A DNA stretch of 59,175 nt, counting the filler, from Sphacelaria rigidula (Eukaryota): assembly GCA_964200075.2 (NCBI GenBank). It is 8 parts of 8 records of this genome, joined end to end, with 100 filler letters (N's around TTAATTAATTAA, not from the genome) between each part and the next. Parts side by side here need not be neighbours in the genome. Positions count along the whole stretch, not along the records: positions 7,412 to 14,721 come from CAXNAA020015504.1; 7 more parts are not named here. The stretch is one strand, 5' to 3'. Shown in pieces: positions 3,786 to 59,175 of this stretch (positions are counted from its first letter, which is position 1; every line of letters starts with the position of its first letter). The notes below the pieces were generated by a model. The model was not told the origin of the DNA. It did no database searches and saw nothing but the letters and a program-made list of their open reading frames with translations. A program made the translations under genes and the position numbers.

Positions 3786-4676
3786 GCATGCGGGGTTTTC
3801 GTCGGATCAGGCGCGCAATCAATCACCAAGCGCGAAGCGCCGTGATGTGCTCGGTGAGTCGCGTGAAGGGTGAGCTGCATGCTACTAATATAAGATTGTT
3901 AGGCCCGACCCGAAGCGTACTAATTATCTTGCATGTGGGTGGCGGTCTCGAATGAGTCGCTTAATTTTCTGGTATCGCCACTTGCAGAAACAAGCAACGG
4001 GTTACACTGCCTCAGAGTGTCTAACTATTTCAACACTGTGTAGTACGATCATCCCCTTCGCGCGGAGTGAGGCCTCTCCACCCCGAACAAAATGATCTGA
4101 CTCGACCACCATCAATGTCACCGCAAAAAAACAAAATGATAAGGAGAACCCCCCCCCCCCCGGTAGCGTGGCTGCCTAGCTTACGCCGTGAGTGGCGTGC
4201 TTTACAGCGTCATTGCCAACCGACGCCAACCCTCAAAGGGGGGTTCGAGGAGGGGCGGGGATTAGAAGGTGTACCCTTTCTAGCCTAGAGCTTTCCCTTT
4301 GTTCCGAAATTCCAGCGAGCGATGCTCAGAGGCGGGGAGCACAGACAAGCTTACTGCTCGTATTTCTTACAACCGGACACATTAAACTCTCCAGCAGGGG
4401 CACGTGGGCGCGCGTACACACGCACACGCGGACACACGCACACACAGACACACTGCGCCGTCATGACAACTAGGGCGGCCGAAGGCCCGGTCGGAAACGC
4501 ATAGCCTTGGACGCCCCCAACGTACGCACGGGCGGGGAAGCAGAAGTGCGGACCGTCTAGAGTTTTAGCCGCCGTCCTGCACGGATCGAACGATACATCT
4601 TTCATTCGAAATACCACCCGTTCCCAGAGCAGCACGCACGACAGCAACTACTCCACCATTTTCGGAGTGTTCGCAC

Positions 4677-4815
4677 CGTCCAGCGATCGTGCATCTTCTC
4701 CATCAAACCATAGCTCGGGAAGAACGTCAGAATGCCGCCGGGAACGATGCGGGCGTACTGCAAGAGGGCGTTGCCCAGCGAATCCTGATACTTGAGATCG
4801 TGCTGATTCGAATAG
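4677..4815 (-). CDS. FANCJ: FANCJ/BRIP1-like Fe-S DNA helicase, internal exon (first of three visible)
   Basis: Acceptor cgcag, donor gtgcga. Encodes (S)YSNQHDLKYQDSLGNALLQYARIVPGGILTFFPSYGLMEKMHDRWT; GILxFFPSY is the XPD/Rad3-family motif IV region. Splices in phase 0 to the exon at 3255-3350. Confidence 0.88.
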
Positions 4816-6602: not shown

Positions 6603-6781
6603 CACACCTTGAACAATGACAGTATATGGTCAATAGTTGCAATAGACAACAAAAATGTACCGCGTAAAGTATAGGCCTGCTGCAACTATCATCGGCCCAC
6701 AATAGTCGCAATAGGCCTATACTACACGGTACATTTTTCGTCTATTGCAACTATTGGTCATCATATACTGTGCAAGGTGTG
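6603..6781. mobile_element. Foldback MITE, hAT-like (8-bp TSD)
   Basis: Ends CACACCTTG / CAAGGTGTG; nearly fully self-complementary; flanks GATTGTTG / AATTGTTG (7 of 8 match). Homologous to 56859-57026. Confidence 0.8.
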
Positions 6782-7311: not shown

Positions 7312-7411
7312 NNNNNNNNNNNNNNNNNNNNNNNNNNNNNNNNNNNNNNNNNNNNTTAATTAATTAANNNNNNNNNNNNNNNNNNNNNNNNNNNNNNNNN
7401 NNNNNNNNNNN
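7312..7411. other. Artificial scaffold linker (N44 + TTAATTAATTAA + N44); identical linkers at 14722-14821, 22131-22230, 29540-29639, 36949-37048, 44358-44457, 51767-51866
   Basis: Seen directly: seven identical 100-bp spacers containing a palindrome with stops in all six frames; the segments between them are 7309-7311 bp in non-increasing length order. Confidence 0.98.
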
Positions 7412-7499
7412 GTGGAAGGATGTCTGACACACTTATGAGCCTTTTTTTTCGTGCAATCAAATACCCCCCCCCTATCGTAGGATGACTATCGTCAGTACA

Positions 7500-7740
7500 A
7501 AGCTGCACGTTGTTCAAGTCCTTTTCAAGTCGCAGTGTAGGCAGAGAACAGATATAGTCCTGCGCTGTCTGTACTGTATTTTCCCCGCCTCCTTTCCATG
7601 CCCTGCTCACTGCGTGCTGCACTGCTTCCGAGCGCGCGCCCTGCGTGAACCCTGTAGTTATACTCCTGACGGTGTATAACACCCCCGTATATCAAAATGT
7701 AAGCTGCAGCATATATCCACATTGCATAGCCATATGTGGC
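7500..7740 (+). repeat. Unclassified dispersed repeat shared with 21876-22110
   Basis: GCTGCACGTTGTTCAAGTCCTT...GTCCTGCGCTGTCTGTACTGT...GACGGT.TATAACACCC...ATATCAAAA.TAAGCTGCAG occurs on both scaffolds. Confidence 0.75.
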
Positions 7741-7984
7741 GCACATGCCGCGCTCACTCTGCAGCATATAGCACCTGACGTATGAGCACGCGGTATCGCA
7801 CTGTCCTGCATGGTATTATACAGTTTACTGTTGTAATTATATAGACCACGACTGGACTCCTGCTGCGGGGTCAGGTGAACTGCGACAGTCAATCAATCAA
7901 TCAATTTATCATCCCCATCAGAGCACGTGCATATACATATATACCACGATCAACTTTGTTTTGCGTTTTTGCTAAAAGTCATTT

Positions 7985-10095
7985 GGTTTGTGTCATTGGT
8001 AGACACTGGACCACGGGGTTTTCAGAAGCTATGTGCATTTATCTGCGAGGTATATACCGTCAAACCAGCATCTTTACCACGCCTGCAGCGGAAGCGTCGC
8101 TTCGAAGCACAGGCGTGTGGACATACACTCGCAAGCAGTGTGTGGGATCTCTACGAGCTGGGCCAGCCGAGAAGCGATTCTGCAGTTTGCAGGCCCATCA
8201 TACGGCCAATACTTGGAGTTGGACCCTGAAATTTGGTATGGACAGTGAGTAGGACATAATAAAAACAATTACCGCACACACAAGGCTTTTTTTCTTTGTT
8301 TTTTAAGTGAGTTAGGGGCATTTTACCGATATCTGAAAACTGGTTAGTGCCCTCGACTAAAAAAAACTAAAAAAAACCGTTGTGTGCGCCAGTATTGTTT
8401 TTTATTATGCCCTACTCATTGTCCATACCAAATTTCAGGGTCCAACTCCAAGTATTGGACGTATACTGGGCCGTTTAGTGACAGGATCAGAAAAATTCGG
8501 AACATTATTTTGTAGGCCATTTACCGGCCCACGTTTGGTGTTTGTGTATCGAAACTTTGTGTGGGGCGTGGCTAGGGCATAATCAACAAAACAAAGTGGG
8601 TGAGGTCATTTTTTATTTTCTTCATTGGTTTAGGGCGTTTAAGTGTGGTAAAGACAATTTTTTCACGAAAACGCCTGAACCTCTCTGAAAAAAAAATGAA
8701 GGTCCATTCATTTTTTATTTTTTGCATACTTCTGTGGTCCTCCATGCTGAGTTTCAAATTATAATTCCAAATATTGAGCTACAAAATTGAGATAAGGCCC
8801 ACAAGCAGTGTTTATTTCTCCTCAAAACTGCTCCAAAACCCCGAAAAAAAATGAATTAAATAAACGTAAAAAAATGAAAAGCTGTGTTTATAAGCTTTAT
8901 TATGCACTAGCAGTTATCCATACGAAATTTTATAGCATAACTCTCAAAAACTGAGACGTGATATCCAGGTTTAGCTAACCTAGCGCATCTGCTCGTGATA
9001 TACTGATTTTAGTATAGCAACGTATGTGCGCCATATCTCAAGATATATTACAAATGAGGTGAAGGTGAGGGTATCTATCGTCTCCCCGTGTTCCAGGAAA
9101 TGTCCACACCAAAATTCGTCGTCATCCACTAAATGCATCGATCGGGGGCTTCATAGAGATCTTAGTATAAACGCTATCTCCCTTAGGTATAGGAATTACT
9201 AGACATGGGGTTTAATCGACGAGAAAATATGGGCCCACAATTTCGAACAGATTGGCACCTTTCCCTTGGTTAGACGATTAATACAATATGCGAATCATGG
9301 CCCAACTCGTCCGTGTCGGCGAGATATTGCTTTGAGAGTTTAAATCCGTGTCTAGGCTGGCTCAGCTCGTATTCAGCAAAAGCTGATGAGAATTCATCCT
9401 TTAGCCCAACTGGTACATGAACTGGGGGGCAAGAGGATGAATTGCTTTCAACAATTTTCCCTGCGTCTCGGATCCCATACGCTGATAACGGTGCAGTATG
9501 CGGCATCTACGCTGTTGATGCTGTTCGCAAGAAATATCTTTTTGCCCAATTTCCGGATGAAGTGGAGGGCAAAGTGAAGATTTATTCCTGGCTTTTTCTG
9601 CTGTTCAAATTTCAAATCTGCCGGTGTGCATGGGATTTGTGCAGCAGAAAATCTGTTCGAAATAGATATTTTTTTTTGCCCAATTTAATTGGTCGAAAAA
9701 AGGATCTGGTTTGAATAGGTTCTTCTGCTGTTCGAAATATATCTTGTTTTTGCCCCAAAAAATTGGGCGAAAAATGGATCGATTTTGAATAACGTCTCCT
9801 GCTGTCCAAGATATGTTCCTTTTCGCCCGATTTGAATCGGGCAAAAAAAGGATTTATCTCGGACAGCAGGAGAAGCGTTTGAAAAATAAATTACAGATTT
9901 TATACAAAACAACAATGGAATTTTCAAACTTGGGAAGACCTCTCCACAGGGTTGCTTGCAGGGTTTCGACAAAAACGCTATGCAAAATGCTGGTAGAGGT
10001 ACTAGGGTTTGCAAATGCAATTCAGGGCTTCTTACAAAAGACTGTGAAGAACGCTATGTAGCACGTCCTACAGGGTGCTATCTGTCCACGTGTGC
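7985..10095 (+). mobile_element. Unclassified ~1-kb dispersed repeat interrupted by the 8154-9369 MITE
   Basis: 7985-8153 plus 9370-10095 align colinearly with 20478-21435 on the minus strand (e.g. GTGTGGACATACAC, ACAGGGTGCTATCT.TCCACG.GTG). Ends approximate. Confidence 0.75.
8154..9369 (+). mobile_element. Non-autonomous TIR element (1216 bp), CGAGCTGGGCCAGCC TIR, TA target-site duplication
   Basis: TA|CGAGCTGGGCCAGCC at 8152 and GGCTGGCTCAGCTCG|TA ending at 9371; internal inverted repeat about 8206-8270 / 8394-8458; empty site with a single TA at 21277-21278; sister copy at 58601-59175. Confidence 0.9.
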
Positions 10096-10194
10096 ACGGG
10101 ATACGTCTCAATTGCGCTCCTTGCTTGGCGGTCTGAGCTACTACCAACAGTATTCGCCGAACCTAGCCCGAAATCCCGAACCCCTCACATTTTG

Positions 10195-10544
10195 TGTGCG
10201 TGTGTGTTGCCGTCCCATCTATTCTGGACACCGGTCTACATCTTTCGGTACATGTGGGCGCATCAGCCGGGGGCACACAGGAGGAGGGTCAATACAGGAG
10301 CTTTTTATTTGTTTTAGTACCCCATCTTCCTTCTTCGGTGCTTGTCTTCATTTTTTATCGCGAGAGGGATTCAGCAGTCCCTTTCTTTCGTCGAACGTTG
10401 AATCGAATTTTGTGTACTCACGACATAGTCGCTCTTCACTTTTGAGCATGGCGTGAGAAAAAAACCCAGATCGCTCAGAGGAAGTAACCCGCGACCCAAC
10501 CGTCAAAAGGTTTCGAGGTCACCAACTGCGCCACCGGGGCGACC
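10195..10544 (-). mobile_element. tRNA-derived SINE
   Basis: The minus strand starts GGTCGCCCCGGTGGCGCAGTTGG (A box), then a decayed B box; the body matches 53931-54357 and ends in a CA-rich tail. Confidence 0.82.
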
Positions 10545-12620
10545 AGTCACCGTCACATTCCTTATAAAAAAAGGGATGAAATTCATATTTACGTCGGATA
10601 TGGAAAAAAAAGTGAGTCAACTGCTCGACACCAATCTTTTTATCCAGACTGGTCTGCCGCTGAAAATAGCTCACGTCCGTTCCGACCTAGCACGGATTCT
10701 TCCAAACTTGGGTTTTGCTGCACGTCGGAACAGGAACAAACAGATGCTAAACTCGTTCCCATTTTATAATAGAGTCGAACCATCTACCCAAACGAATAGA
10801 ACTGATTGGTCATGAAGCAAGAGGCCGACGCGATTGTTTGGGGTGTGCGAAGCCTCCGTCAGTGCTTGTGTGACATTCCGTTTCTGATTTATACAGAAAA
10901 AATCCAATTGGCTATAGTTACTACCACTTGGAGGTAAAACTGGGTGTGCAGCTACAGAACTAAAACACTGGGGTTGGTGATTGCTCGCTTGGGAGCCATG
11001 CAATGATGCACGGGATTCTGCTGCCATGGACCACATCATGACAATCTGATCGAGCCCAACGCACCTGCACCACAAACCTGAACCGGTGCCGGTCGACATT
11101 GATCGAGCTCTGTGATGTGTGGCTACTGGCCGAGCGAAAGAAAAGGGTGGGGCACTTCCGCGACGTTATGCCGACAATCGTTGGTTTCCTAATGTGGGCC
11201 TGTGGCAGACAATAGGAAATGAACGGGAAGTGTAATCAGCTGGGCAGATGGCGACGGCCCACTTTCGAGGCTGCCGTACCTTTTGTCACGACTTAGTCTG
11301 ATGTCGTTCTGTTCGACCACTCTCTTTTCTTCTCTTTCTGTTCCTTTTATTTCTGTTTCTGTTCCTTTTTTTTTTCTTCCTTAGAGCGTTTTTGATTTTC
11401 GTTTTTCTTGGGTACGTCGATGATGAGATCACGGCTGGACCCCGGGGGGGTCAGTTAAAGTGCAACAATCAATAAAAAAATCAATCAACCGTACACTCTT
11501 GATCACCCCACTGTATGCTTATTTGGGAACGCGGGGTTTGGTACATTTTCGAAACATCGTAGCGGGTGTAGCATCAGTGGAGGGACAGAAATCAACCTGG
11601 CTGGAGCTTAGCCGTTGTGCGGGGTTCAATCGCGAGGGAACGTTTGTCGTCTCATGATTGGCCCTGTGCATGCGATGAAGGGCGCCAGAATGGGATATGG
11701 GCAGGCCTGGACCGAAAGCACTAGCGTCCGAGCCTGCAAATACGACTTATTGCGCAAGGAGTTGAGATTGCTGTGATCATTACCGTAGTTACAATATCGA
11801 ATCAGGGGGCGCTTGTCTGAACCGCGCATATCGCGATGTTCTGGGCGACGGTATGCACGCATACGAGCTTGCCAGGGATGCCAACATTGTGAGAATTCGG
11901 TTTTAAGAAAATGGTTTAAGCACACCGAACGCGTTTGTGAAAGGGTTCTCACCAGTGCGCATCACATATATGGGCAGCAATCGGTCGCGGAACACCCAAT
12001 ATGTTTATGAAACCAAATGCCACAACAATGACATGTATCCTTACAGGGGAGGATCAAGCCAGTCCGAATGAGGGGGTGGACGTAACGGGCCCACATCAGT
12101 GTTTTTCGAAATGTTTCGTGGACGTACTGAATTGATGTGCTTACCGCGAACATTCTGGTGCAAAACGCCACGTAGGGAATCGACTGGTGAACACGTCGGG
12201 GGTTGAGTACCTTCGCTGAAAACATTACCTGACTTACCCCATATATGATTGATTTTAGCCAGCGAGACGGACAGTGGAATGCATCCGTACTGCTGAAAAT
12301 GGAACAAAAAAGGGCAACAAAGTGAGAAAACGTCATGAGAGACCCGTTGTTCCCGTAGAAGTCTGAATGTCAGGGGCTGGCTGCAGACGACGGCTTTTAT
12401 TCGCCATGTAGCTTCGTGCACACCGCATAGTTACCTGGCCTATGTTGCCTAATTTATCAGATGTTCGGACGAGGTAAGTGTAGAAAATGAGTACAGACTC
12501 GAAGGAACGTCAGAAAGGAAAAAAAGAAGTTTAGGTTGCATGACACAATCGAAAAAGCGCCTGGCATAAAGTGACTGTTTTCGTGCGCTACTGTACAGAG
12601 ATATCGAAGTTTAAATCATG

Positions 12621-13574
12621 CACACCCTGCACAATACAATATGTGATACATTGCCCGCTCAATATGTCGACGCGGGTGGTCAATATATTTCGGGCGATTG
12701 ATATGATGGCACGAGAGAGGGTCAATATATATATATTGCGTCATCAATATGTCAAGTCTCGCGACATGCAATATATATCGACCGAACAATATATCACGGC
12801 ACGCGCCACCTCAACATACATTGGCCAAGGAGTATGTTGGTGCGGTAAGGCACTAATATATATTTGTCGAGTCATATATTGGCTGCCACACGAGATCAAT
12901 ATATATTGATTATTCAATATAATCAACACCCGAAGCACCAATATATGTTGCCGCCCCATGCGTCCATGCGTCCAATATACATTGGGTGGACAATATACGA
13001 GGGAACGCACTGTCACAATACATATTGGTGTAACAATATATATATATTGATTCTCAACACGTAGGTTGGAAAGTATATTGAAATTAGTGTGGTGGACAGT
13101 TCTATGTTCGCGGGCACCATTGAAATATGTATCACCACATGCCGAAAACGCTCAACATATTCCTCCGCGAGCGTGTTCAATATATATTGGTGTAGCGATA
13201 GCTATGCAATGAGCGTGCGCAATATATATTGGAAAAACAATACGTTTGCATGGTTTGCGCCCAATGTATTTTATGGCAGCAATATGTTCCGCATCGCTTC
13301 GACTCAATATATATTGAAAATTCAATACATACACGGCTGGCATGCACAATATATATTGAATGCTTTGTTCCCGAAGCAAATGCGTTTCCAATATATATAT
13401 ATATATATTGGTATGCATTATCTCACGATCATGACACGAGAAATATATGTTATTGCTTTAATATTTCCGAGGACGTCTCAACACAATATATTATATTGAA
13501 AGGACAACATTTGCGTTGTCTCCAATACGAAGTATCGGTATCATATTGGAACATATTGTATTGTCCAGGGTATA
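12621..13574. mobile_element. TIR-bounded element with an internal ~42-bp-period array of CAATATATATTG palindromes
   Basis: TIRs CACACCCTGCACAATACAATATGT (12621) / ACATATTGTATTGTCCAGGGTATA (13551-13574), the same TIR type as 56601-56738. Motif starts at 12681, 12723, 12769, 12812, 12854, 12897, 12939, 12973, 13016 and 13178, 13220, 13262, 13305, 13347, 13389. No TSD preserved. Confidence 0.75.
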
Positions 13575-14821
13575 ACCAACACAGAACCGGTGACCACAGG
13601 GGCACCAAAAGACGCATATCGACCCGCTTTTCCTGTCGTCGGGATGTTTACAGAAGATATATTATATGCTGTGAAGGGGATGGGCGGCCTCATACGGTGG
13701 CCAGATGGGTATAAGAAGGCATATACATATATACCAGGTCGCCTCTTCTGCCACCATATTTTCTAACCAGTATATGTATACATATATATATATCAACGAA
13801 TTCGACAACTCTTCGTTGCAGTGCACGCGAACTTCTGCCACTTCCTTCAAAGCGTTTCCCAATGTGCACGGGCTCCGGCATCCACCGCGTCTGGATCTTT
13901 CTTAAGTGTACACAATGCGTTTCATTTCCGATATATATCGACTGGCCAATACATTGGCACCCACGTAGACTCAATATATACTGACTGGTCAAAAGGTTTT
14001 TACCAGTACGACCCTAGGTGAAGAACAATACCTTGGAATTGAGGTGATCCGGCAGGATCACCTCAATTTACAATATTTTCTTTTTCACGTAGGATCCCCT
14101 AATTTTGTTAATCGGAATCCAATTTTTTATCGCGTGTAGTTCTTGTCAACAGCTACCAGCAGATGAAGGAATAGAGCCATATCTCCAAGAATTGGTTGTT
14201 CGGATGCGAAGATTCTAGCTTGAGGGGATATCATCCTTAATGAAAAGCTCCATGCTCAATTTCGATGATCGGCTGTTCAATTCGGCACCGACCAGACAGA
14301 GTGCTGGTTCAGCCTCCTTTAAGTAATACCCTTGTTCACGAGACTATCATCCTGAACGGTTACGACGTTCAAAAGCAGAATGAGCGGTGGTTCTCGTCTT
14401 GTTCGTGATTTTCCAGCTACACCGGTTCCGCGCGTTGGTTGTGTTTCTAGAAATGTTTGTGAAGACGGACACCCCATGTTGATCTATTGTATCGAAGCTC
14501 AATCGTGAAGAGAGAGGCGTATGCTCGAGATCAGCTGCTTCCCTCAGATAAATAACGATACCAGCGAAGTCTCAATCATATGCCTCCCATAACGTGCACT
14601 CTCCGAAACTCTCGTGTTTATTTTCAAAGGCGTTGCAGGGTTAAGAGCCAATGACGCTTTCTACGATAGCCCCCGCAAAAAAGTGCATGGTTTTAGGAGG
14701 CAAAATCTTCACGTAAATCGANNNNNNNNNNNNNNNNNNNNNNNNNNNNNNNNNNNNNNNNNNNNTTAATTAATTAANNNNNNNNNNNNNNNNNNNNNNN
14801 NNNNNNNNNNNNNNNNNNNNN

Positions 14822-21435: not shown

Positions 21436-24400
21436 ATGTTTAGAAAGTATCACTGAATCAATCGTATATTAATAGTATATGTAGACCATCACCCCAAGAT
21501 ATATCTATACTCCGTATATATATCACCGCACACAAATCGAACATCAATGAACGCACCCGCCCGCACAACAGTATTATTCCGCCCAGCTATACCACCACAA
21601 CCCCGCAGCAAAGAGCACGGGTTGGGCACGGGGATATAGACACATACACACTGCCGTGCGGGTGGATATGGTGTATTTCTCGTTGGTGGAAACTTGAGCA
21701 CCTTCTTTCATGGTCGCGACATCGCGCGGCGACGACATCCGCGGGGTGCGTATAGGCGGGTGCGAGGAACAATAATCAACCGGCCACCTATATTATGCAT
21801 ATACACACTCGCCATATGCATGCTGCGGACGCACCGCGATATAACATAGTGCAGCATACAGGCCGCGTACGATATGCTGCACGTTGTTCAAGTCCTTCTC
21901 GCGTCGCTCTGTAGGTAGAGAACATATATATGCATTGTCCTGCGCTGTCTGTACTGTTCTTTTCCCCTTCTCTTTCACGCCCTACTTACTGTGCTGCAGC
22001 AGCTGTGCGCGCAAATATGCTGTGGAACGCGCGTGAAAAACTGGAGTTCGTGACGGTATAACACCCGCCCCATATATCAAAATAAGCTGCAGGCATCTAC
22101 ATTGTATTTATAGCCAGCCATCTGCAGTACNNNNNNNNNNNNNNNNNNNNNNNNNNNNNNNNNNNNNNNNNNNNTTAATTAATTAANNNNNNNNNNNNNN
22201 NNNNNNNNNNNNNNNNNNNNNNNNNNNNNNGCGAGGTCAATGGTCTTGTGACCATGGCATGCATGATCATGAGTACACCCCCCCCTCCTACTTTCCGTAA
22301 TGCGTGTGACGGAATGGCACATGTTATCGTCATCGCATGACACATCTTCATCGCATGCCTCTCGGAGACCTGCGATACGGGATGTAACGCTTTTTTCTCC
22401 TTTCTTGGATTGTGTTCGGCTCGTGCGCAGAAGCGAAGGGGGGTGTACACAAGAGGCGGATCATTGAGCGACGGCGTCGGCGGCGGAGAGAGTGGCGAGG
22501 GTGGCGAGGGTCGATGCGGGCACAGTCCTCAGACAATTGCCCTGGAGGACACGATCGTGAACGACGAGAAATTGTTGTAGCTGAAGGAGGGATCGGTGCA
22601 GGGGGGGGGAGGTAGGGGGGCTTGGTGGTTGTAACTAGTTTGTGGCCTCTGGCTAGCAGGACCAAAAAGTTGGGTCGGAACAAGGAGGAAAGGAAAGGAA
22701 GGATGGGATCAAAATAAGCAGGTATGGGAGAGATTGAGTTTTTTTCGGAGGGTGCGCACGCAGAGAGGGAAGGGTTGTACTACTTTTTTTTGGGAGAAGG
22801 GCTGTGCAACCTCTTTTCGTCTGTTGTTGTTTGGCGATGTTTTGGAGTGTTTGTGCGCGCGGGGGATTTGTCGTGAGTGGATGTCCCATTATTTTTTATT
22901 TTCGGCCTCGCGAGAAAAAGAAGTAGTGATGACAAATTACTTTTTTTCGTGGAATAAGAAGCACGAAACAATTATTGACGAAAAATCTTATTGAAGAAAA
23001 AAAAAATGCAGTGGCGAAGATTTCCTGTACAGAAACAAGAAAAATGAAAAGTGATCTCTCTTTGTTCATCGTCGTGCAAAAGGTGACAAGTTTCAATTTT
23101 GACGGAACAATTAATTGTGTAAATACGAAGAACCAGAGAATGGGGGTATTCGAGAGACGGGGAGTGGAAGAGGAATATTATGTTCTTTTTTGTTTTGTTC
23201 TATTTCTCTTGCATTTTCCTCCGGTTTTTTGTTCTGTTTTTGATTTGCTTCGTTTTGTTTTGTTTCAGGGATGGGATATATATATTTATGATAAAAAAAT
23301 GGGGGCACAGCGAACGAGTGAATGAACTTTGTGTGTGTGTGCGTGTGCGTGTGTGTTGCGAGTGCATGGGGATCGAGCTGCAGTTTTTGCTGTGTATGAC
23401 TCTCTGATCCGTGTTTGCCCGTGCTCTGTTTTCGGAGTTGAGAAAAAAAGATGGTACTGTATGCTGTTATTTGCTACCGGTGAGGTTTTGCGGTGTTTTT
23501 CCATGTTGTGCTTGTTCTGACTTGCGAGCTGTCCACGTGGTAAGCATGGTAGCCTCCTTTTTTTTCCGGAGCTCGGAGTACAGGTAACCGAACGCACACC
23601 ACCACGCATATAGGGAGGGGGGGTGAGGGATGCGGTATGCCCAAAGGTTGTGAAATATGACAATTTTCTATTTCAGCGAAAGGGTTATCATATCTTTAAA
23701 AATCCGCACCACACTGACACCACATGCACACTCCCAAAAATATCGCCCTTGCTAGAAGATGAAAATGGGCCTGGGGGGGGGGGGTGCAAGTTCGAATAAA
23801 TAGGCTGCCACATAGAGTCAGACAGCCGCTGAACTCAAGCTGGCTTAGGTGACGTGTACGTCTGTGCAGCGGGCACACAGCGTATGGACGTCCTGTTCTC
23901 AGTGTTGTGTGGTTGGACAAGAGGTGACCGCGAGTCGGAGGAATTGAACGGCACTGGTGGTTGAAAAAACCCGGTAAAGTGGCTGCGGATTAATCGTGTA
24001 TTTTGCCTGGAGACCACCCCACCTACGCTCGCGTAGAAAGAAGAATGGGGGAAATGGTCAGGACACCTCACGAGGATCTAGGTCCAGGGGGCACTCATGA
24101 GGTTGATGTAGCCTTCACAGTGTTTTAGGTTCAGTCCAGCTGTGCTCACATCACTTGTGTGAAATATTTTCGTTTTGATACATAAAACAGAGATGAGCTG
24201 TTGGGGTGCCGGAAAAGGGTGAAGTAGTGCGGTGCCAACACTGGGAAATGAATGAATCCCCTGGTTTCTGCGTCACAGACGATACCAGAAAATCTGCTTT
24301 TTCAATATAGGTTGATGGGTTGGTGGTGGTATTCGTGTCGAGTGCCCCGAAAAGTTGGTGTAACCGTCGGGAGCGTGACCACGTTGTTCTACCTCCAGAG

Positions 24401-28417: not shown

Positions 28418-29878
28418 ACACGTCGATATCCTACTCAGGGATGTCAAGGGCCTCAGTGGCAAGCTACTACGAAAGGCATATTGGGCCTCGGGGAGGGGCA
28501 TTTCGGAACTGAAACGCTTCATGCACTCATTGACCGCTTTTCACTCTCAATCGTACCCTCTACTGTCAATCTCACGAAGACACTGTTTTGTGTACACGAT
28601 TTAAATGACACAGTGCAACCAGTCATGGAACGGTACTCGTGTTCCGGGTCGATCACAAGGGAGATATCTTGTACGGGCTGAAAGTCAGCAGGTGTTGAAT
28701 GACGAAGACTTTCACATGGAGAATCGCCGGATATCGTGCCGGATCAGCGCCAAGGGATCGTCTTGATTGCGCGACGGCGGCGTTGCGCGTTGCCACTCTC
28801 TGCTTCACAGTCTGCGTCTTGGTCGAAGTAATGCCTGCGCACAAGCCAATGACACGGGAAAGCAAGATGGAAGCCTCTATGATCAAAAGCGGCTCACTCA
28901 TTATCGTGTACCTAGTAGTCAGCTGTGGTTGCCATTTTTCAGGCAATTCCACGCCGGGGATATCGCGTTCGCCACGACGGGCTCGCGTCAAATTGTAGAT
29001 CGACTGTATTATATTTCAATAAGATTCTCCCGAAAAATACGAGAAACATGCAAACGGAGGGTGGGGGAAGGGGGGGGGAGTCCGAATCAGGGGGGCATTT
29101 TTGTATGTACACCACCAACAGTCCCGCGCCATGATCAAAAACAAAAATATACCGCAATGTCCGTCCTATATTTGTGAATGCCAGCACTTGACTTGCTCAC
29201 AACAATCATTGCATCATTGAACGAAAAGCTCTTTGGCTTTTCTGCTGTGTCAGGGCATCCCCATGAAACATGGTGCACTAGTCAGACATACAACCAGTGA
29301 GTGCACCGGAAAAAAGGTTCTTCGGCTACCGAGCACGAACTAAACGAATCCGGCTGTGGTTATGGTTCATCTTCTCTCCACAATAAACACGGATTCTTAC
29401 AAATTGGGGATGGATATTTTATTGGGGATGAGGAACCCGGAGAATTAAAACCTTCGTATCCACACCAAATCTTCAAAACATGCACACGTCGGACAGATCA
29501 GTTTCTACGCGATCCAGCTCCTACAGGTGAAGTATGAACNNNNNNNNNNNNNNNNNNNNNNNNNNNNNNNNNNNNNNNNNNNNTTAATTAATTAANNNNN
29601 NNNNNNNNNNNNNNNNNNNNNNNNNNNNNNNNNNNNNNNACTATCCAACTCCTCCCGTGTATTTATCCCTGTGCTCAACTCGTGCTCTGTGCTGCAGGGT
29701 TGCGGGGGCAGCTGAGTATGAGTTGGATGGAGTTTGCATGGTCCTGTGAACGGGTGTCATTTGGCGCGGTGGTCTGTAAAATAAGAGTCAAGAGCCGCCT
29801 CATGCCTTTCGACTGCCTATTTTCGATCGAAAGAAAATGTTCTTCATTCGTTGCATTCTTCTCTGCACGCCGCTATTT

Positions 29879-36810: not shown

Positions 36811-37147
36811 GCAGGAACAGCAGTCAAAAGCAGGTGTTTTTTGGTCGTTGAAGCGAGGGTCCCCACGCACCTGCAGACCACGAACCACAGCTACCAAATG
36901 TGGGAAAGGTTGATGATAGGTGAGGCTGATGGGGGAGGGGGGGGGGGGNNNNNNNNNNNNNNNNNNNNNNNNNNNNNNNNNNNNNNNNNNNNTTAATTAA
37001 TTAANNNNNNNNNNNNNNNNNNNNNNNNNNNNNNNNNNNNNNNNNNNNCGTCTTCCTCTTCAGCGCCCCTCAAACAAGAAACGAGGCATGCTGTAGTAAC
37101 TCTCCCGCTCCTGACTCTTGACTACCTCCGTACTCTTCCTCCCTCAC

Positions 37148-43753: not shown

Positions 43754-44457
43754 AGCGCCGGGGCCGCAGAAAGAGAACAAANNNNNNNNNNGGGGGGGCG
43801 GGCGTGGTGTGGGGGCAGGCGGGGGGGGGGGCAGTGGGGGAGGGCGGCGGGCCTTTGCATGGACACTTCCGGTCCAAACATGAAGTCAACACCGCAGCGG
43901 TCGTATGTTTTATCCATTAGCATGAGCTTTTCGTGCAAACTCTTGAGTACCGTGACAACATATCATTCCCCTTCCTTCCAGGGGGTTGAGAGAGGGGATA
44001 AAGATGACAACATCTCGGCACGGCCCAATGGAGGTGGCGAAAAAAACTAAAACTGCGATTTTGGGTGGGGGACCTGGACCTGCCCGCGCCGTCGATCAGA
44101 GGCCTACCAACCACCAGCAGACACGGTTGAGAATTCTCCAAGGGTCCGGCAAGTACTGATTCGTCTGGAAATTACTTGGTTTTAGTATGACTGATTCGAC
44201 TCGTACGAAGTAATCCCTAGACTTTGTGTTCAGCGTTGCAAGCCAGATACACGCAGCCCAGACACGTGGAATGGCGCAAAAAAGTTGCGTGGATACCCCT
44301 TGGACCAGCGGTCGATTTTTTTCTCCCTTTTGGGCAATCAGGCCGAAGACATCGTGGNNNNNNNNNNNNNNNNNNNNNNNNNNNNNNNNNNNNNNNNNNN
44401 NTTAATTAATTAANNNNNNNNNNNNNNNNNNNNNNNNNNNNNNNNNNNNNNNNNNNN

Positions 44458-47330
44458 CCGTCGTTGTTCCGACAAAATAGACCGCAACGCACGAATAACC
44501 TCTTTCACTTTGCGTTCGCGAGCACCATTCGACCAAGGGGTATACGCAACAGCAATTTGGTGTTGCACCTTGAGCGCATCGCTCAGCTGCGCGATCACTC
44601 GAATCTTGAATGTGCGTGGCGGTATCAATAACCCAAACACGCGGCATCCCCGTGGTCTTGCACCAATGGAGCAAGCGCTGAGCCGTAACCTCGGCGGTGC
44701 AAGCCTCGTCGGCTCCAAGCAAACGAAATTGGACAAATCATTCATGATAACCAAAACGTACCGAAAACCATCCTCCTCAAGCAAACCATTAGCACTTTCA
44801 GGTCCGCTACTTCCGACGTACAGAAAATCAAAGTGAACAACTTCACCTGGTGCAGTGCCATGCACAGTATCGTCGTACGGACGAGGTATAATCTCACCAG
44901 CACGAGTGTCTACCCAATGCAAACACTGGCGAACGAACTCGCGAACGTGGAAACACACAGTATTATTTCAAACGAAACAGAGTCGGCGCCACACCACGGT
45001 GACCGGCCGACCGCATGTGAGCGCACACCATCAAGCGAGTTTGTACAGCCTCATCATCCGGCGGAACCCACAAAACATCACTACTGCCAACACGCACGCG
45101 AAACAAACCATCGTCAGCCAAAGTGGTTTGACCGAAAGTCGTAGGAAAAGAATGAACACCATCGCCGACTGTCTTGCGCTGCGCGGTACAAATGACATCT
45201 AACGAGGGCAGCGAATCCTCGGCATTACACGGCTCTACACGGCAACAGAACGAACAGGCACGGTAGGAACCTTTACCCAGCGAGACAACAGATCTCCCCA
45301 ACAACTGCGCTCTCCAGTAATGTGTTTAATGGCATACCGATATTGGCGTAGTACTCCTTTCCAATTTTCAAGCCGTTGTGCTATGGCCGTCGTCACCGAT
45401 GTGACACACTCTTCGTGGTTAAAAACGTACTCAAGATTGCCATGATGGGTGAAAATGCGAACACCATCCCAAAGCAAATGCTCTAGCCTTCGAAATGTAT
45501 TGGCTATCGCGAAACATTTCTTGTCCACTCTCGCCCACCGCAACTGTGAACCCTTAAAACTATCATTCAGAAAACCCAACGGTTCGTGTGACATGTATTC
45601 GAGCGCAATTCCACTACTAAACTCTGCGACAGGCACTTGCGTAAAAAAACTACCCCAGTGAAAATCCGAAGTATCTGGAAACATGAGAACAACGCACCCT
45701 GGACGAGGATGATACAGCGGCACCGCTTGCGCCACCAAATCTTGCGCAGCAAGCCATGCCCGCACACGATCCTCCGTCCAAGCGTCCTCCGGAATGGTAC
45801 GATTACGCGCCACCCGCTTGGTCCGATGCGAAGCCCTGACCATAAGTTGTTCCAAGAATACTCGAAGCGGAGCAACAACTTCCGCCATGCGCGGGAGCGA
45901 AGTCCGCAACCAATTCACCGCCTGCAGAAACTGCATCAGCTCACTAGCGTTCTGAGGACGTCGCGTATTGCTCAAACCTTGAATACGGATGGGATCACGC
46001 GAAACAGTACCCTTGGGGTACACCTTACCACACCAAACCACTTCGCGTGCGAAACAGTACACTCATGCGCAGCGACGAACAGACCAACACTCTCCAAGCG
46101 GCCAAGAATTTCGTCAAGCAAAGCTAACAGTGCTTCTTCGGTTTCAGCAAAATAGAAAACATCATCCACCCACACTTTACAATCTAGACCTCGCAAAATG
46201 TCAGTTAGCACACCTTGGAAATACGCCGTGGCGTTCAACACGCCCTGCGGGACACGAGTAGGCGTAAACAAACCGTCCGGCGTGACGATCGTGAAGGTTT
46301 CCTGAGCCTCCGGCGCCAGAGGCATCTGCCAATACCCCTGTAGCAGGCCAATTTGCCGAAGCATTGGGCTACCAGCAACTCCCACATGTCTTCTTGGCTT
46401 GGCATCACCCCCGGAGACTGTTCCACTTGCGCGTTCACCGTCTGATAGTCGCTGACCGAACGGAATGTGTCCATTTTCGGCACCGCCATCGCCGGACTCG
46501 CCCATACAGCCTGAATGTTCCTCACCACTAAACCAAACGCCACCAAAGCTGCGATGCATGAGGCAAGCCACCTGGTCTTTACCGGATCGTACCGTCTGGA
46601 CTTCGCCTTCACCGCATTTGCCTGGGGCTTAAGCTGCACCCTCATGAACTCAACGCGCGCTGGCGGATCACCACGCAGCGCACGGCGAAATGTATCTACG
46701 CGACGAGCCAAAATATCGCGCGGACAATGTGCGCCATCGGCACTCAGGCTCTTCTGCTCGGCCTGCCGCACACCATCCTCAAGCGCACGTTCTCGTGCAC
46801 CTCTCTCCTCTGCTGGGTCCATGAACATATCCGACCCCTGATCGACCAAGCGCTCTTCCGCTTCATCAGCAGGAGCCTCCTCCTCATTGACGCTCTGGAA
46901 TGACCGTATGGATACGATCACACGTCTTGCAGCAAGGTAACTGGGGTTTTCCACGCCGGTTTGCACCGGCACAGCACGCGGACGTAACTTCTCCAACATC
47001 AGCGAATATAGATCAATCCCAAGCTCCTTGATTGTCGCCATCCCAAATAGAACCACGGTGTCCCTACCGGGTATGACAGCAAACGTAATGGGCTGCAATT
47101 GCACAGCCCTCCACGGCGTACGCACACTAACAGTAATTGGCACCGTTTTGTGTGTAACCGTCACGGAAGCACCCGTGGCGGTCTGTACCGTTTGCGGTCT
47201 GTTTTCGAACGGGATCTGAAGCTGAGCGCCGCCAAACTGCGAACACATCTGTTCTAGCAACCCCACACCGATCGACGTGAGCCCAGATCTATAATCCAGA
47301 ATAACGCGGGTCATGAACGAACCTACAGAA
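44458..47330 (-). pseudogene. pol: Gypsy pol: protease, reverse transcriptase, RNase H, integrase
   Basis: Protease ILDYRSG (degenerate DSG, D at 47294-47296); RT GYWQMPL...PQGVLNATAYFQ...WVDD (46161-46172); RNase H MFPDTSDFHWG...EPLGFL...QLRW..VDK..FAI; integrase AH...AGHRG...CLHW (last Cys lost), VHFDFL, SNGARER. Confidence 0.93.
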
Positions 47331-47844
47331 CCAAGCAAGGCTAAATATGCGCGTATGCATTCCGCCTTGCGATCGGCAGGTACCACGCCTGTCGAAGAAC
47401 CCTGTTCTGTCCCAAGAGTCACCTGACACCAGGGCTGCCATCCAGCACTTGGCATCGATAGCTGCGAATCGTCGGTCCAACAAACCAAGTCGACGAATAT
47501 GCAGACGACGCTGTTATAGCCGTCGCAGCAGGGAATGCACCAGACACGGATCCTGCCTGGCCGAGGGGCTGTGAGCTATTCGCTCCAGCACTCCCCACCG
47601 AGGTATTTGCATTTCCCACGTACACTATCCGCCCCGCTACGGACGAACCATAAGATCCAGAGTCACCACCTGATGACATAGTAGAAGAAACAGCATCGGA
47701 GGAACCACCATCCTCCGCCGATTGCTTGCTACGGCGGCCGCCGCACCGGCGTCCCTGATCGGCACGGCTCCGTCCACCGTGACGATCGCCACGAGATCCT
47801 GATAAATCTCGTGCATTGCCCTGTGCAGCGCCTTGAGCGCGAGG

Positions 47845-48641
47845 CTTGGGGCAGCCCTTGATCATATGTCCGGTGTCGCCGCAGTTGTAACACGCGCGAG
47901 TGGACGACTCTTGCGAAGACGGCTGCTGTTGCTGTTGCTGTTGCTCTTTGCGGCGCAGACCACCTGCACTTGTTGCAAAGTCGCGCCGACCATGTGCTTC
48001 AATGAACTTCCACTGGTCGTCCGCCTCAAATGGTTTTTGAACACCACCGTCGGGTTCTTTTCCCAGCCGTCAACATACGTTAGTACATTTCCAACATACG
48101 CCCTGAATTCCGGGGGCGAAATCCCATCCACCAAAGCTATGGAAACCGACTCGGCCGGGCCTGGCAACCAACTCTTGTCCTCCGCCCGGTACATGGCTTG
48201 CACCATCATGTTCTCTGCAAAAAACCGTTCCATATCTAAACTGACCATCATAGCACGATCCTTGACATATTTCCCCCCGTTTTGCTTAATCGTAAGTATC
48301 CTACGCAGGTCTGCTGCAGCCTGCGCAGCGTCATCCTTTTCACCGGTTGTAGTATACCCGGCACGCTGCTTCACAGCATCAAGGAATCCATCGGGGGTCA
48401 TAGCCCGACCGTCCTTGTACATGTCTTCGAAACGGCGGTGAATTTAGACAGGAATGAGTTGCCCTATGCTTATTCTCTCATGCCGTATAATTCCCTGTCC
48501 ATTACCGAGACTCAGACGCTATATATATTGAAGATATGCTGCGAAAAAACGTCGTGATGCCTCCTCTGTCCATACTTCACCATACTTTGGCGGCTGTAGT
48601 GGCTCACCTAACACCAGCGGCGCTGCCGCCGCTTGAGTCAT
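47845..48641 (-). pseudogene. gag: Gypsy gag with CCHC zinc knuckle
   Basis: ATG at 48641 (MTQAAAAPLVLGEPLQPPKY...), interrupted by a frameshift and a stop; CYNCGDTGHMIKGC (CX2CX4HX4C) at about 47852-47893 in a shifted frame. Confidence 0.85.
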
Positions 48642-52422: not shown

Positions 52423-53930
52423 CAACACGCAGCTAAGTGGGTGCCCCCTACTTGTACCACAAAATTAGATGCCCAAGTTTTCAACAAGAAAGAAACACCT
52501 CACGCGGAGAGGGTCGGGGTGTCGGTTCTCCACTGCATGCAGTGTATATGCTCAGATCATGATCTATGCGGCAGGGTTGGGTTGGTAGCTGCGAATGAAC
52601 CGTGTGGGGTTACTCATAGAGTTCCGTGAAAGGTTTGTATCTGGCATGGTTGCCTGCAACACGTGAGTCATGTGCCCCTTCGTTCGTTTCCGCCGCATGC
52701 TTTCGATCGAAAAAGCTAAGATTTTATGTTTTTCACCCCGTCCGTCCCGCGCAAATAATTATGAAATTGACTTGCAAGCCATCTGAGAACATAAATGCCG
52801 TGGACGTATCAGATACGAGCTAACTACGACCAATTCGATTCGACCGCATGTTTTCGAGTCGAAGAAAAATTGATAAGGCCGTGTCTTCGCACATTTTTTT
52901 TTGATAAAAAAAGTGCGGTGACAACAAAATATTCCGATCTGATAGGTCGTGATTTCGGTCATCTTCAAAATAAACGACGATGGGTGAAATCGCGACCAAT
53001 CAGATTGGAGTTTTCCGTTTCCACTGCATATTTTCGATCGAAAAATGATGGTGCTGAGACCATCTTTCACGGCAGTGACCAATCTCGATTCTTTTCAACA
53101 TCTGCGGAAAAAATCTGGGAACGTATTCTAGACCATCTTTGTTGGCAGTCACCAATCTCGATTTTTTCGAGCATCCGGAGGAAAAAATCGGGGAACGCAT
53201 TCTATGGATTCTGATTTGGACCAAATCGGAGGCGACAAATCGGGGAATCACCATTTCGGAACGGTTTCCCCCGAATTTTCGAGATATCGGGGGAAATCGT
53301 TCAAGGGTCGGACGAATGAATGATTCGTCTGGGAATTACTGGACCAAATCGGAGGCAAAAAATCGGGGTTTTACGATCTCAGAACGATTCTCCCCGATTA
53401 AAAAAAAAACGGTTTTGAGGTGACGTACATGCGTTGGCGTACAAAGGTAGGGTACGACGCGCTCGATACTTCTGCAACCGCAGCAGAAGACTGCCTCGTG
53501 ACAACGCAAGGCGTGCCTGCCCGCGCCAGCTGCTGAAGCACTTTCGTAAGGGGTTTGACAAGCGGAAAATAAGTGTTGACGCCGTACCCTGCGGCGATGA
53601 TGATATTTTGTGCTGCACTGCCTGTGCTGCCATATGTATGACTATAACAAACGGTACTGTACTACAGTATCCTAGTCTGTTGGCGCTGTGCTTGCAGGGT
53701 GATGTATGGCACTGCAGTGCTGAGCTCTTCTCACACACTGTTCACTGTTGTCGCGATACCGACTGCGCCATCAAGTATTACAACACGGTATTAGCACATA
53801 CTGTAATGATGGGAGTGTCCTGCACTGTATTACCCTAGGGTACCACGGTACGACACTGTTGTACTCGAAGGATTATTTACCGCCTACCTGCTCTTCGGCT
53901 TCATGCACGAGTACGCGATACTCACAAGCC

Positions 53931-56600: not shown

Positions 56601-56738
56601 CATACCCTGGACAATAGAATACACGGTCAAAACATGTACTGCGTACAGTATGGAATCTATTGTCTGTTGCAATAGACAATAGATTCCATACTGTACGCGG
56701 TACATTTTTTTACCGTGTATTCTGTTGTCCAGGGTATG
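56601..56738. mobile_element. 138-bp foldback MITE with a perfect 8-bp TSD (hAT-like)
   Basis: GTGATTTG|CATACCCTGGACAA...TTGTCCAGGGTATG|GTGATTTG; almost entirely palindromic. Confidence 0.9.
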
Positions 56739-56858: not shown

Positions 56859-57026
56859 CACACCTTAGACAAAATATGGTCAATAGCTGCAATAGACAAG
56901 AAACGTACTGCATAGAGTATAGGCCTACTGCGACTATTGTCGGCCGGCAATAATTGCAATAGGCCTCTACTTTATGCAGTACACTTCTCGTTTATTGCAT
57001 CTTTTGACCATATTGTCCAAGGTGTG
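56859..57026. mobile_element. Foldback MITE, hAT-like (8-bp TSD)
   Basis: AACAATTT|CACACCTTAGACAA...TTGTCCAAGGTGTG|AACAATTC; homologous to 6603-6781. Confidence 0.83.
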
Positions 57027-57034
57027 AACAATTC

Positions 57035-58600
57035 CAAGGGTAGGTCGAGTAGAGTTTGTACTTTTGATTACTCGAGTAAAATACTCAAGTATTTAATCTA
57101 CTCGACATTTGAGTAGGTCGAGTGCGGCCTCAAATACTCTACTCAAATTTTGAGTAGGTCGAGTACGGTCTCAAATATTCTACTCAAATGTTGAGTAAGC
57201 ACTCTCAGTAATTCTCGAGTATAGTGTATCACTTGAGTATGACCTCAATACTACTCTACTCAAATTGTGAGTAGGTTGAGTACGGTCTCAAATACTCTAT
57301 TCAAATTTTGAGCAGGTTGAGTACGGTCTCAAATACTCTACTCAAATTTTGAGTAAGTACTCCCAGTAATACTCGAGTATAGAGTATCACTTGAGTATGA
57401 CCTCAATACTCTACTCAAAGTTCGAGCAGGTCGAGTACGACCTTAAATACTCTACTCAGATTTTGAGTAAGCACTCTCAGTAATACTTGAGTATAGAGTA
57501 CCCCTTGGGCATCGTGAGTACCCCTGACAGTCGGCGACTTCGTGGCGTCAGTTCACACACCATGTTGAATGCATGGGCGAACGATGGCCATCAATTAGAT
57601 GGGCGGCACTACATCACAGCCAACAAGGAGTACGAGCGAATGATGGCCATGAAAACCTCAAGAAGCGTGCAGGTGAACGAACCTACTTGCCCCAGCGCCC
57701 CATCTCACCAGCCCCCACCCACGGCAGTTCATACTCGATACCTCTCAACGCCTTCGGTATCACTTTCAATACAGAGGGCTACTTATCATCATCGAGTAGT
57801 CGAGTAGTCGAGTAGGTATCATCAAAATGGGCGACTCTACTGGCCACGGTTTGGCAAGACAGTTTGATCTCGAATCAACAATCATCATGGGTGGGCAACT
57901 CTGGGAATACCTCGGTATCTCCTCTACCCAAGTTTGAGTATCTTGCGTACGAACTTGAATATTTAAATTCAAGTTATGGGTTTTCGGTACATCGGATCCG
58001 GCCTGAGATACTTCACTCAAATTTTGAGTAGGTCGAGTACGGCCTGAGATACTCCACTCAAATTTTGAGTAGGCCGAGTACGGCTTCAAATACTCTACTC
58101 AAATTTTGGGTAGGTCGAGCACGGCCTCAAATACTCCACTCAATTTTTGAGTAGGTTGAGTATGGTCTCAAACACTCTACTCAAATTTTGAGTAGGCCGA
58201 GTACGACCTCAAATACTCTACTCAAATATTGAGTAAGCACTCTCAGTGATACTTGGGAATAGAGTATCCCTTGAGTATGACCTCAACAGTCTAGTCAAAT
58301 TTTGAGTAGATCGAGTATGGTCTCAAATACTCTACCCAATTTTCGAGTAGGTCGAGTAAGAACTCAAATACTCTACTCAAATATTGAGTGAGCACTCTCA
58401 GTAATACTTGAGTATAGAGTATTACTTGAGTATGACCTCAATACTCTACTCAATTTTTAAGTAGGTCGAGTATGGTCTCAAATACTCTACTCAATTTTCG
58501 AGTAGGTTGAGCACGGCTTTCAATACTCTACTCAAATTTTGAGCGCTAAAAGTTTGACTCTAAAAAAATACTGAGTATTGAGTATAGTCTACTCGACCTA
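57035..58600. repeat. Satellite-like array (41-bp unit plus a ~72-bp variant) bounded by inverted ends
   Basis: Unit GAGTAGGTCGAGTACGGTCTCAAATACTCTACTCAAATTTT with palindromic core TACTCAAATTTTGAGTA; blocks at about 57100-57500 and 58005-58545 around a largely unique centre; ends TAGGTCGAGTAGA / TCTACTCGACCTA. A related short remnant lies at about 49098-49167. Confidence 0.88.
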
Positions 58601-59175
58601 CGAGCTGGGCCAGCCTAGAGGCGGGTTTGAAGTTTGCAGGCCCATGCTCTTTTGTACATTTAGAGTTGGACCCTGAAATTTGGTATGGACAGTGCATAGG
58701 GAATAAAAAAAAAATTACTGAAGTACCAAAAGTGTTTTTTTTTCATGAGTTAGGGGCATTTTACTCGTGAGTTAGAGGAATTTTACGGAGTGTAGGGGTA
58801 TTACTCATGAAAAAAAACACTTTTGGTACCTAAGTAATTTTTTTTTACGCCCGATGCACTGTCCATACCAAATTTCAGGGTCCAACTCTAAATGTATAAA
58901 AGAGCATGGGCCGATCAAAAACCGGCTCGGTAGAAATTCGGAACAGTATTTTGCAGGACACTCACCGACCCACGTTTGGTTTTCGTGTATTGAAATTTGG
59001 TATGGGGGCTCTCTAAGGCATATTCAACAAAAAAGAATGGGTCACGTTGATTTTTTTTCAATTTTTTTCATTGGTTTAGGGCGTTCTACTGTGGTGAAGA
59101 CCATTTTTTTTTATTCGGCACTCTTTTGTGGTTCTCCACACCAAAATTCGTCGCCATCCGCTAAATGCATCGATC
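58601..59175 (+). mobile_element. Copy of the 8154-9369 TIR element, internally shorter and cut by the window end
   Basis: TA|CGAGCTGGGCCAGCC; same internal inverted repeat (GAGTTGGACCCTGAAATTTGGTATGGACAGTG); 59134-59175 matches about 9103-9143. Confidence 0.88.

Follow-up and report, generated by a model that had tools for sequence, protein, structure and literature searches.

A one-way array of palindromic motifs at 42-bp spacing in a high-copy, probably non-autonomous TIR element of Sphacelaria rigidula

In foldback (FB) elements, short tandem repeats that surround a conserved core make up the long inverted termini, and iteron arrays are a feature of plasmid and viral replication origins. 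In known TIR elements, the subterminal motifs of one end usually mirror those of the other. hAT termini have a YARNG-type consensus start, and an autonomous hAT element encodes a transposase with BED, RNase-H-fold and hAT-dimerisation domains. A CRISPR array, at home in prokaryotic hosts, combines near-identical direct repeats of 23-55 bp with foreign, locus-specific spacers and cas genes. For Hermes, BED domains are described (PMC10368747) that bind 4-bp subterminal repeats, with a quasi-palindromic pair bound cooperatively and with exact phasing near the tip being critical; mutation of the far-interior sites leaves ~70% activity, and the authors doubt that auxiliary binding inside the ends matters. 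The Herves transposase is reported to bind a short subterminal motif, CG/AATTCAT (PMC3143072). Tetris/DAIBAM of Drosophila virilis, which are non-autonomous TIR elements, are reported to carry internal tandem repeats from which satellites arise (PMC4079207), and central repeats are reported for DINE-1 (PMC2374699).

The locus considered here lies at 12621-13574 of a window of 59,175 nt, the whole stretch of S. rigidula DNA analysed (assembly GCA_964200075.2). It resembles the hAT ends of Hermes and Herves in reiterating a short motif inside its ends and in or next to the TIR, in a palindromic pair that could seat two domains, in phasing, and in having small relatives with an 8-bp target-site duplication (TSD), for which 10 bp fits equally. 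Unlike those ends, its sites are strictly ~42-bp periodic, run one way and fill the whole 0.95-kb element, an arrangement that the best-studied hAT element, Hermes, would not predict; its termini moreover read CAYACC, as opposed to the YARNG start. Like Tetris/DAIBAM and DINE-1, it has a non-coding body with internal tandem repeats, its TIRs recur in smaller MITEs, and it is present in high copy and in many rearranged forms. Unlike Tetris, whose repeats are described as ~220 bp long, homogeneous and set within long foldback TIRs, it has 42-bp repeats that are unidirectional and saturated save for two motifs. As in FB elements, a short conserved word sits inside a longer periodic unit that composes most of the element, but FB arrays are mirrored in two arms, and here the array keeps a single direction throughout, with no inverted arrays acting as long TIRs. 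Like iterons, the putative binding sites are direct repeats at whole helical turns with AT-rich neighbours; unlike iterons, they have no replication gene or origin context and belong to a dispersed, high-copy family that is TIR-bounded on at least one side.

An initial annotation, made from the sequence alone, had proposed the locus as an undescribed structure. This is too strong, since transposons with internal tandem arrays or with subterminal transposase-binding repeats are already known. The feature is real and fairly ordinary selfish DNA, and it represents no new kind of biology; what is unusual is that the 42-bp register is strict throughout the element, that the units face only one way and that all but 18 positions are saturated. 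A literature string search finds the motif string CAATATATATTG in no paper, four terminus strings only by coincidence, in biomedical papers on subjects other than transposons, and nothing of relevance on subterminal tandem repeats in alga transposons.

The window is a mosaic of eight pieces of ~7.3 kb each, joined by linkers of the form N44-TTAATTAATTAA-N44 at a regular step of 7,409 nt:

7312-7411, 14722-14821, 22131-22230, 29540-29639, 36949-37048, 44358-44457, 51767-51866: linkers

Because the pieces are joined artificially, adjacency across pieces is artificial too, and the MITE at 56601 is no physical neighbour of the 12621-13574 element, which is held by the piece at 7412-14721. Two extra runs of 10 N occur in the window, at 2924 and 43782. 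The surroundings of the element are eukaryotic, rich in TEs and poor in genes. Among the 110 stop-to-stop ORFs of at least 110 aa in the whole window, four have Pfam matches at E <=0.001 (three retrotransposon domains at 45.2-48.1 kb and one TPR match under its gathering cut-off) and none has a transposase domain. None of the four overlaps the element, and the four stop-to-stop ORFs that do overlap it are without a Pfam family. No Rfam family reaches threshold in the element, the best being snoZ39, whose 23.3 bits (E=0.31) fall short of its gathering score of 39. Elsewhere in the window, an LTR-retrotransposon coding region at 45238-48069 (- strand) is broken up, with RVT_1, an RNase H-like domain and a zf-CCHC zinc knuckle each in a frame of its own, and tandem duplications with periods of 73-74 bp, ~2 copies each and A-runs in both, lie at 9653-9805 and 53057-53204.

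The termini of the element, and the three small MITEs related to it, are as follows:

12621..12645, + strand: left terminus (TIR) CACACCCTGCACAATACAATATGT, with two direct CAATA half-sites in its inner part (inverted repeat I3; flank contigs)
13550..13574, - strand: right inverted copy of the terminus, an insecure family boundary (inverted repeat; crossing paralogous contigs)
6603..6781, + strand: small MITE on another mosaic piece, flanks GATTGTTG / AATTGTTG, CAATAG pairs near the ends
56601..56738, + strand: small MITE, TSD GTGATTTG matching at 8/8, or at 10/10 with the terminal C/G taken as part of the target
56859..57026, + strand: small MITE, TSD AACAATT(T/C) at 7/8, or 9/10 as 10 bp, CAATAG pairs

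The TIR pair proper (12624-12644 / 13551-13571) is 21 nt long with 95% complementarity, and apart from its copies at either end of the element, the 20-mer of this repeat is absent from the window. Two tandem copies of the CAATA half-site lie just inside each terminus. The three MITEs (138-179 bp) have the terminus CAYACCYTGGACAAT in common with the element, whose terminus aligns with all six of theirs; the earlier description of ~24-bp TIRs, of the same type as those of the MITE at 56601, is borne out. The CAATAG pairs of the MITEs are 11 bp apart and close to the ends.

The superfamily label attached to these termini fares less well. The designation hAT-type is unproven: what fits is only the 8-bp TSD of the three MITEs (8/8, 7/8 and 7/8), for which a 10-bp reading (10/10, 9/10 and 8/10) that also suits Mutator-like elements fits equally, and the window holds no transposase. 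At the element itself no TSD is present at 12621/13574, the left side reading AAATCATG and the right ACCAACAC, with no second AAATCATG in the piece. The YARNG-type start is not seen either, letters 3-5 of the termini CAYACCYTGGACAAT being the misfit. Subterminal repeats related to the inner TIR, as in hAT elements, are present, with CAATA inside both termini and throughout the element. The properties of a non-autonomous TIR element or MITE are found in the 21-nt TIR at 95%, the lack of any Pfam match and the thousands of matching read contigs, with the right boundary being insecure; at 954 bp, the element exceeds the length of most MITEs. The stretch is best read as one diverged copy of a TIR transposon that is non-autonomous and high in copy number and that carries an ancient tandem array as its interior.

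That interior is organized into repeated units, of which the following stretches are needed here:

12637..13525, + strand: array of ~21 head-to-tail units, each ~42 bp (34-52 bp) (unit table and MAFFT alignment)
13178..13410, + strand: best-kept run, with six A-sites at 13178, 13220, 13262, 13305, 13347 and 13389 (motif search, repeat family D3)
12956..12974, + strand: 8-bp micro-tandem CCATGCGT x2.4, in place of the B-site of a shortened 34-bp unit (Tandem Repeats Finder, unit table)

Each unit consists of an A-site, the palindrome CAATATATATTG, followed by 6 nt, a B-site CAATAT that starts at +18 from the A-site start, and ~18 nt of GC-richer filler. The polarity is identical in all units, with the B-site at +18 after the A-site on the + strand throughout. 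Recurrence of the motif is far above chance, as had been claimed: at up to one mismatch, CAATATATATTG is found 11 times in the window, with only 0.15 occurrences expected; 0/100 shuffles reach 11, and nine of the sites lie within 12769-13358, with one each at 13972 and 48519. Two further exact copies with an expanded (TA)n core lie at 12723 and 13389. Seven units have a perfect A-site (12/12), and in 16/21 the match is >=10/12. The B-site, noted earlier as a CAATA half-site about 18 nt after the motif start, holds up at that position, matching at >=5/6 in 12/21 units and at >=4/6 in 16/21. Expansions of the TA core are of +4 at 12723 and at 13034 and of +10 at 13389. The division of the array into two blocks does not stand: it is continuous from 12637 to 13525, and three mid-array units (13058-13177) are heavily decayed.

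The spacing of ~42 bp is equally well founded. Five of the 10 successive gaps among the 11 sites measure 42-43 bp, which 0/200,000 random placements equal, and the self-identity of the element peaks at lags of 42, 85, 127 and 170, with z=4.8 at lag 42. CAATA occurs 25 times in the element, or 26.2 per kb, as against 1.1 per kb outside. A global phase (Rayleigh) test of all 25 CAATA starts, by contrast, is not significant (R=0.554 at 22.3 bp, below the null 99th percentile of 0.563), because the sites fall into two classes and the register is moved by indels of +4, +10 and -8. Power peaks of the AT indicator at 21.7 bp (13.4x mean), 45.4 and 41.5 are suggestive only, control maxima being 6.0-10.9. 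Tandem Repeats Finder does not call the 42-bp array even at score 30, and the units must therefore be strongly diverged. A BLAST search at word size 9 finds no second family copy in the window, and in a sliding scan 41-42-bp periodicity occurs at two loci only, the element and 57040-58601.

Divergence is distributed very unevenly within the unit. Mean pairwise identity across units is 0.738 in the A columns (range 0.46-0.90) and 0.594 in the B columns (0.47-0.72), values somewhat inflated by the anchoring of units on the motif, as compared with 0.268 (0.22-0.34) in the other 25 of 43 scored columns, where composition predicts 0.262. The CAAT and TTG letters that flank the core reach 0.73-0.90 and 0.59-0.81, respectively. 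Because the register is exact in 13178-13410, the contrast between motif and filler is there independent of the anchoring. The dissimilarity of the spacers noted at the outset is confirmed by comparison with shuffled fillers, which give 0.250 +/- 0.006 and equal the observed 0.268 in 5/1000 cases; together with the alignment of blocks 12769-12950 and 13178-13358 at 62.7% over 185 nt, this small excess marks a faint residue of common descent in the fillers. G+C is 52% in fillers and 23% in motifs, with 39% for the element. A whole-unit consensus of the minisatellite kind is not seen, 25/43 columns being at random identity, though period and polarity are present. A motif and a spacing that are kept while the remainder of the unit is at nearly random identity would be expected of a phased protein-binding array in a TIR element, as the initial annotation had put it.

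Contigs of four public read runs (X1-X4), matched to 12200-14000 at >=80% identity, place the window copy within its family. The family is very abundant. Each run contributes 3,948 to 4,747 such contigs, and in X1 these divide into 229 at >=99% identity, 792 at 95-99%, 1,829 at 90-95% and 1,897 below 90%. Summed depth in X1 is 17,706-243,240 in the element bins, compared with 70.7 for the flank contig; the median element bin is ~600-900x flank depth in all four runs, and bins range from 250 to 3,400 times that depth, which is a rough measure and no copy count. Paralogous contigs from the four runs keep the spacer order over alignments of 6-8 units, and their identity there is 81-84%, where ~50% is estimated had the motifs alone been common to paralogs. 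Examples span 12789-13047 (44 differences, 9 gaps), 13036-13400 (68 differences, 5 gaps) and 13200-13590 (62 differences, 14 gaps). Judged by these alignments, the fillers and their order are family sequence, and because the spacers are common to paralogs, the units diverged before the family was amplified.

The same alignments bear on the resemblance to a CRISPR array that had been remarked on, in which spacers would have been added singly from foreign DNA. The resemblance is one of superficial layout only, a short repeat alternating with dissimilar ~30-nt spacers. Co-linear spacers in paralogs at 81-84% make the spacer order family-wide and refute acquisition by the initial annotation's own test, and nothing external matches: the phage collection contains no match to the element (blastn, distant mode), and viral contigs contain 0 loci of the terminus pattern ACCCTGSACAATACAATATG and 0 of the array pattern (two exact palindromes 28-32 nt apart). 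The repeat, a 12-bp palindrome, occurs in variants; neither cas nor any other gene accompanies it, and its surroundings are eukaryotic and TE-rich. Acquisition can in practice be dismissed.

A more serious competitor is that the contrast between motif and filler is a neutral relic, the element being an old minisatellite in a dead MITE whose AT-only motif merely looks conserved through (TA)n slippage and faster mutation of the G/C-rich filler. The core is indeed an expanding TA microsatellite, as its three lengthened copies attest, and the motif anchoring biases the unit alignment in favour of this explanation. So does the spectrum of private changes in the window copy, where G/C sites make up ~16/26 among the rows listed (40 of 307), though G+C is 39%, and where G/C positions look ~2.5x more mutable than A/T in those 26 listed changes. 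From G/C mutability alone, however, the fillers are estimated to decay only ~1.3x faster, and a gap of that size cannot yield 0.74 versus 0.27. Slippage, for its part, cannot maintain the flanking CAAT and TTG or the B-site, which is not a microsatellite, and the spacing is kept as well. The motif is not immune to mutation either, since A/T to G/C changes strike it in the window copy at 12649, 12819 and 12980. Taken together, these points make a purely neutral origin unlikely. At those three positions and at 12873, the window copy has lost a letter that nearly all paralogs keep (4/5 of the private changes in motif columns among the 40 of 307 rows listed), a pattern that fits constraint before insertion and neutral decay afterwards.

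On the left, the family has a sharp edge. A single 699-nt flank contig per run ends at 12621 in all four runs, differing from the window at 0 positions in X1-X3 and at 3 in X4, with depths of 70.7, 12.5, 22.5 and 30.9 (X1-X4). Because this single-copy contig stops there each time, the left terminus is a genuine edge of the repeat. Further left, at 12392-12528, contigs of all four runs skip 135 nt, which could be an indel polymorphism or a paralog without the segment, and bins left of the element, except 12444-12504, have ~8-26x the depth of the flank contig.

The right side is different, and two features there require mention:

13575..14000, strand not assigned: right neighbour, high-copy, contiguous with the array in some paralogs (read contigs)
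13929..13990, + strand: two-unit fragment with the array grammar, namely a palindrome variant at 13929, CAATAC at +18 and the next A-site at 13972 (+43) (PWM scan and sequence)

Paralogous contigs cross the right TIR and position 13574 (13467-13688, 13391-13639, 13413-13689 and 13493-13756), and the DNA to the right is also high-copy, to at least 14000. The two-unit fragment lies 355 bp past the right TIR, and no TIR pair is found in 13500-14720. Since paralogs cross the right TIR and high-copy DNA continues beyond it, the amplified unit may be longer than 12621-13574, or composite. The earlier picture of a block between TIRs therefore stands for its left end, a true repeat boundary, and gives way at the right, where family copies run beyond the TIR. 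Within this right-hand DNA lies an imperfect hairpin at 14010-14096 (88 nt, 77%), whose stem of 14 nt, AATTGAGGTGATCC, is perfect and whose loop measures 4 nt.

The other locus with 41-42-bp periodicity provides a point of comparison:

57040..58601, + strand: second TIR element, sequence-unrelated, with a perfect 14-nt TIR GTAGGTCGAGTAGA (inverted pair I18)

It contains two arrays of 41-bp period, with 20 copies of a 19-bp palindrome in units that include the element's own TIR word; the arrays form higher-order units of ~155 bp around a unique core of ~480 bp. Column identity is 0.83 in the palindrome and 0.57 in the remainder, and no TSD is seen. In these respects the second element resembles the first in design, though not in sequence, and appears to be younger.

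The half-site inside the termini of the first element, the similar word in the MITEs and the array of TIR words in the second element are most simply read as arrays that reiterate the part of the terminus read by the mobilising protein. We accordingly favour, at a probability of about 0.6, an explanation in which the locus belongs to an abundant, non-coding, cut-and-paste TIR family whose array of binding motifs, together with their spacing, was kept by selection while the family was active, most likely for a transposase. The interior would have begun as a tandem duplication of a ~42-bp unit, possibly 2 x 21 bp, and the founding unit would have carried CAATA[T/C], the word read by the mobilising protein just inside the termini. 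During the activity of the lineage, selection in cis would have kept the double site CAATAT/ATATTG, the single site 18 nt on and the ~42.4-bp spacing (four helical turns), as all remaining positions of the unit drifted to saturation. The already-diverged array would then have been copied whole to hundreds or thousands of places, and the window copy would have decayed neutrally since. In functional terms, the array would offer ~40 binding sites on the same face to the DNA-binding domain of a partner transposase, with two such domains bound cooperatively at each palindrome, and the resulting higher local occupancy by transposase could ease end pairing and thereby mobilisation. Precedent for such binding is given by the BED domains of Hermes and by the Herves transposase. 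Counting against the explanation are the absent TSD, the crossing of the right TIR by paralogs, the failed global phase test, the small contribution of far-interior sites in Hermes, the lack of a transposase in the window to link with the motif, and the orientation of the units, all of which run one way and are not mirrored as in known TIR elements.

Selection need not have acted through a transposase. The sites might be read by a host protein, such as a transcription, chromatin or replication factor, or one with a satellite- or centromere-type role, the array being a transposon-borne or satellite-forming platform. Such a platform would suit the unidirectional array, its fragment outside the TIRs at 13929-13990 and the highly uneven abundance of units (17,706 to 243,240 per X1 bin) with many rearranged joints, which recall the transposon-to-satellite transitions described for Tetris (PMC4079207). 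As to the joints, 8/12 of the 'from' points in the element fall in palindromes, among 15 of 213 joints listed, hinting at recombination or at alignment jumps between motifs. Against a host reader stand the half-site inside both termini and the near-identical subterminal word in the small MITEs, and also the array of the second element, whose repetition of its own TIR word ties array motifs to terminus recognition. A host-protein platform is for these reasons improbable.

Returning to selection for mobilisation, the occurrence of a palindrome and a TIR-derived word every 41-42 bp in two sequence-unrelated TIR families admits a bolder generalization, which we hold to be speculative and rather doubtful: a shared structural rule, by which an oligomer of transposase or host protein would coat the element in a register of four helical turns. 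The body would then be a cis-acting scaffold under long-term purifying selection, and the design itself may perhaps have enabled amplification to hundreds to thousands of times over the flank.

If the favoured explanation is true, the family constitutes a natural experiment in cis-selection on a transposon, in which ~21 repeats within one element reveal which 18/42 positions, and what spacing, the mobilisation machinery needs, information for which footprinting is normally required. For an alga-associated eukaryote, it would also supply a model of the sites bound by an uncharacterised transposase, and it would aid the annotation of what is seemingly one of the genome's most abundant repeats. 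The main value of the analysis lies in accounting for a CRISPR-like layout in eukaryotic DNA.

In cellular sequence collections, the terminus pattern ACCCTGSACAATACAATATG has 0 loci in metagenome contigs, and the array pattern has 5 loci in metagenome contigs and 4 in genome contigs (prokaryote). These array-pattern loci are short homogeneous tandem repeats or operator-like pairs; they were rejected as homologues, BLAST sharing only an 18-nt word in one of them, the metagenome contig L002. Both ends of this contig (1-1604, 1,604 nt), which is not homologous to the element, consist of a homogeneous 41-bp tandem repeat with CAATATATATTG and a second word, CAATATAT, and the contig may have a circular form or belong to a long array. 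Its interior carries a 148-aa ORF without a Pfam family and three ~60-bp repeats.
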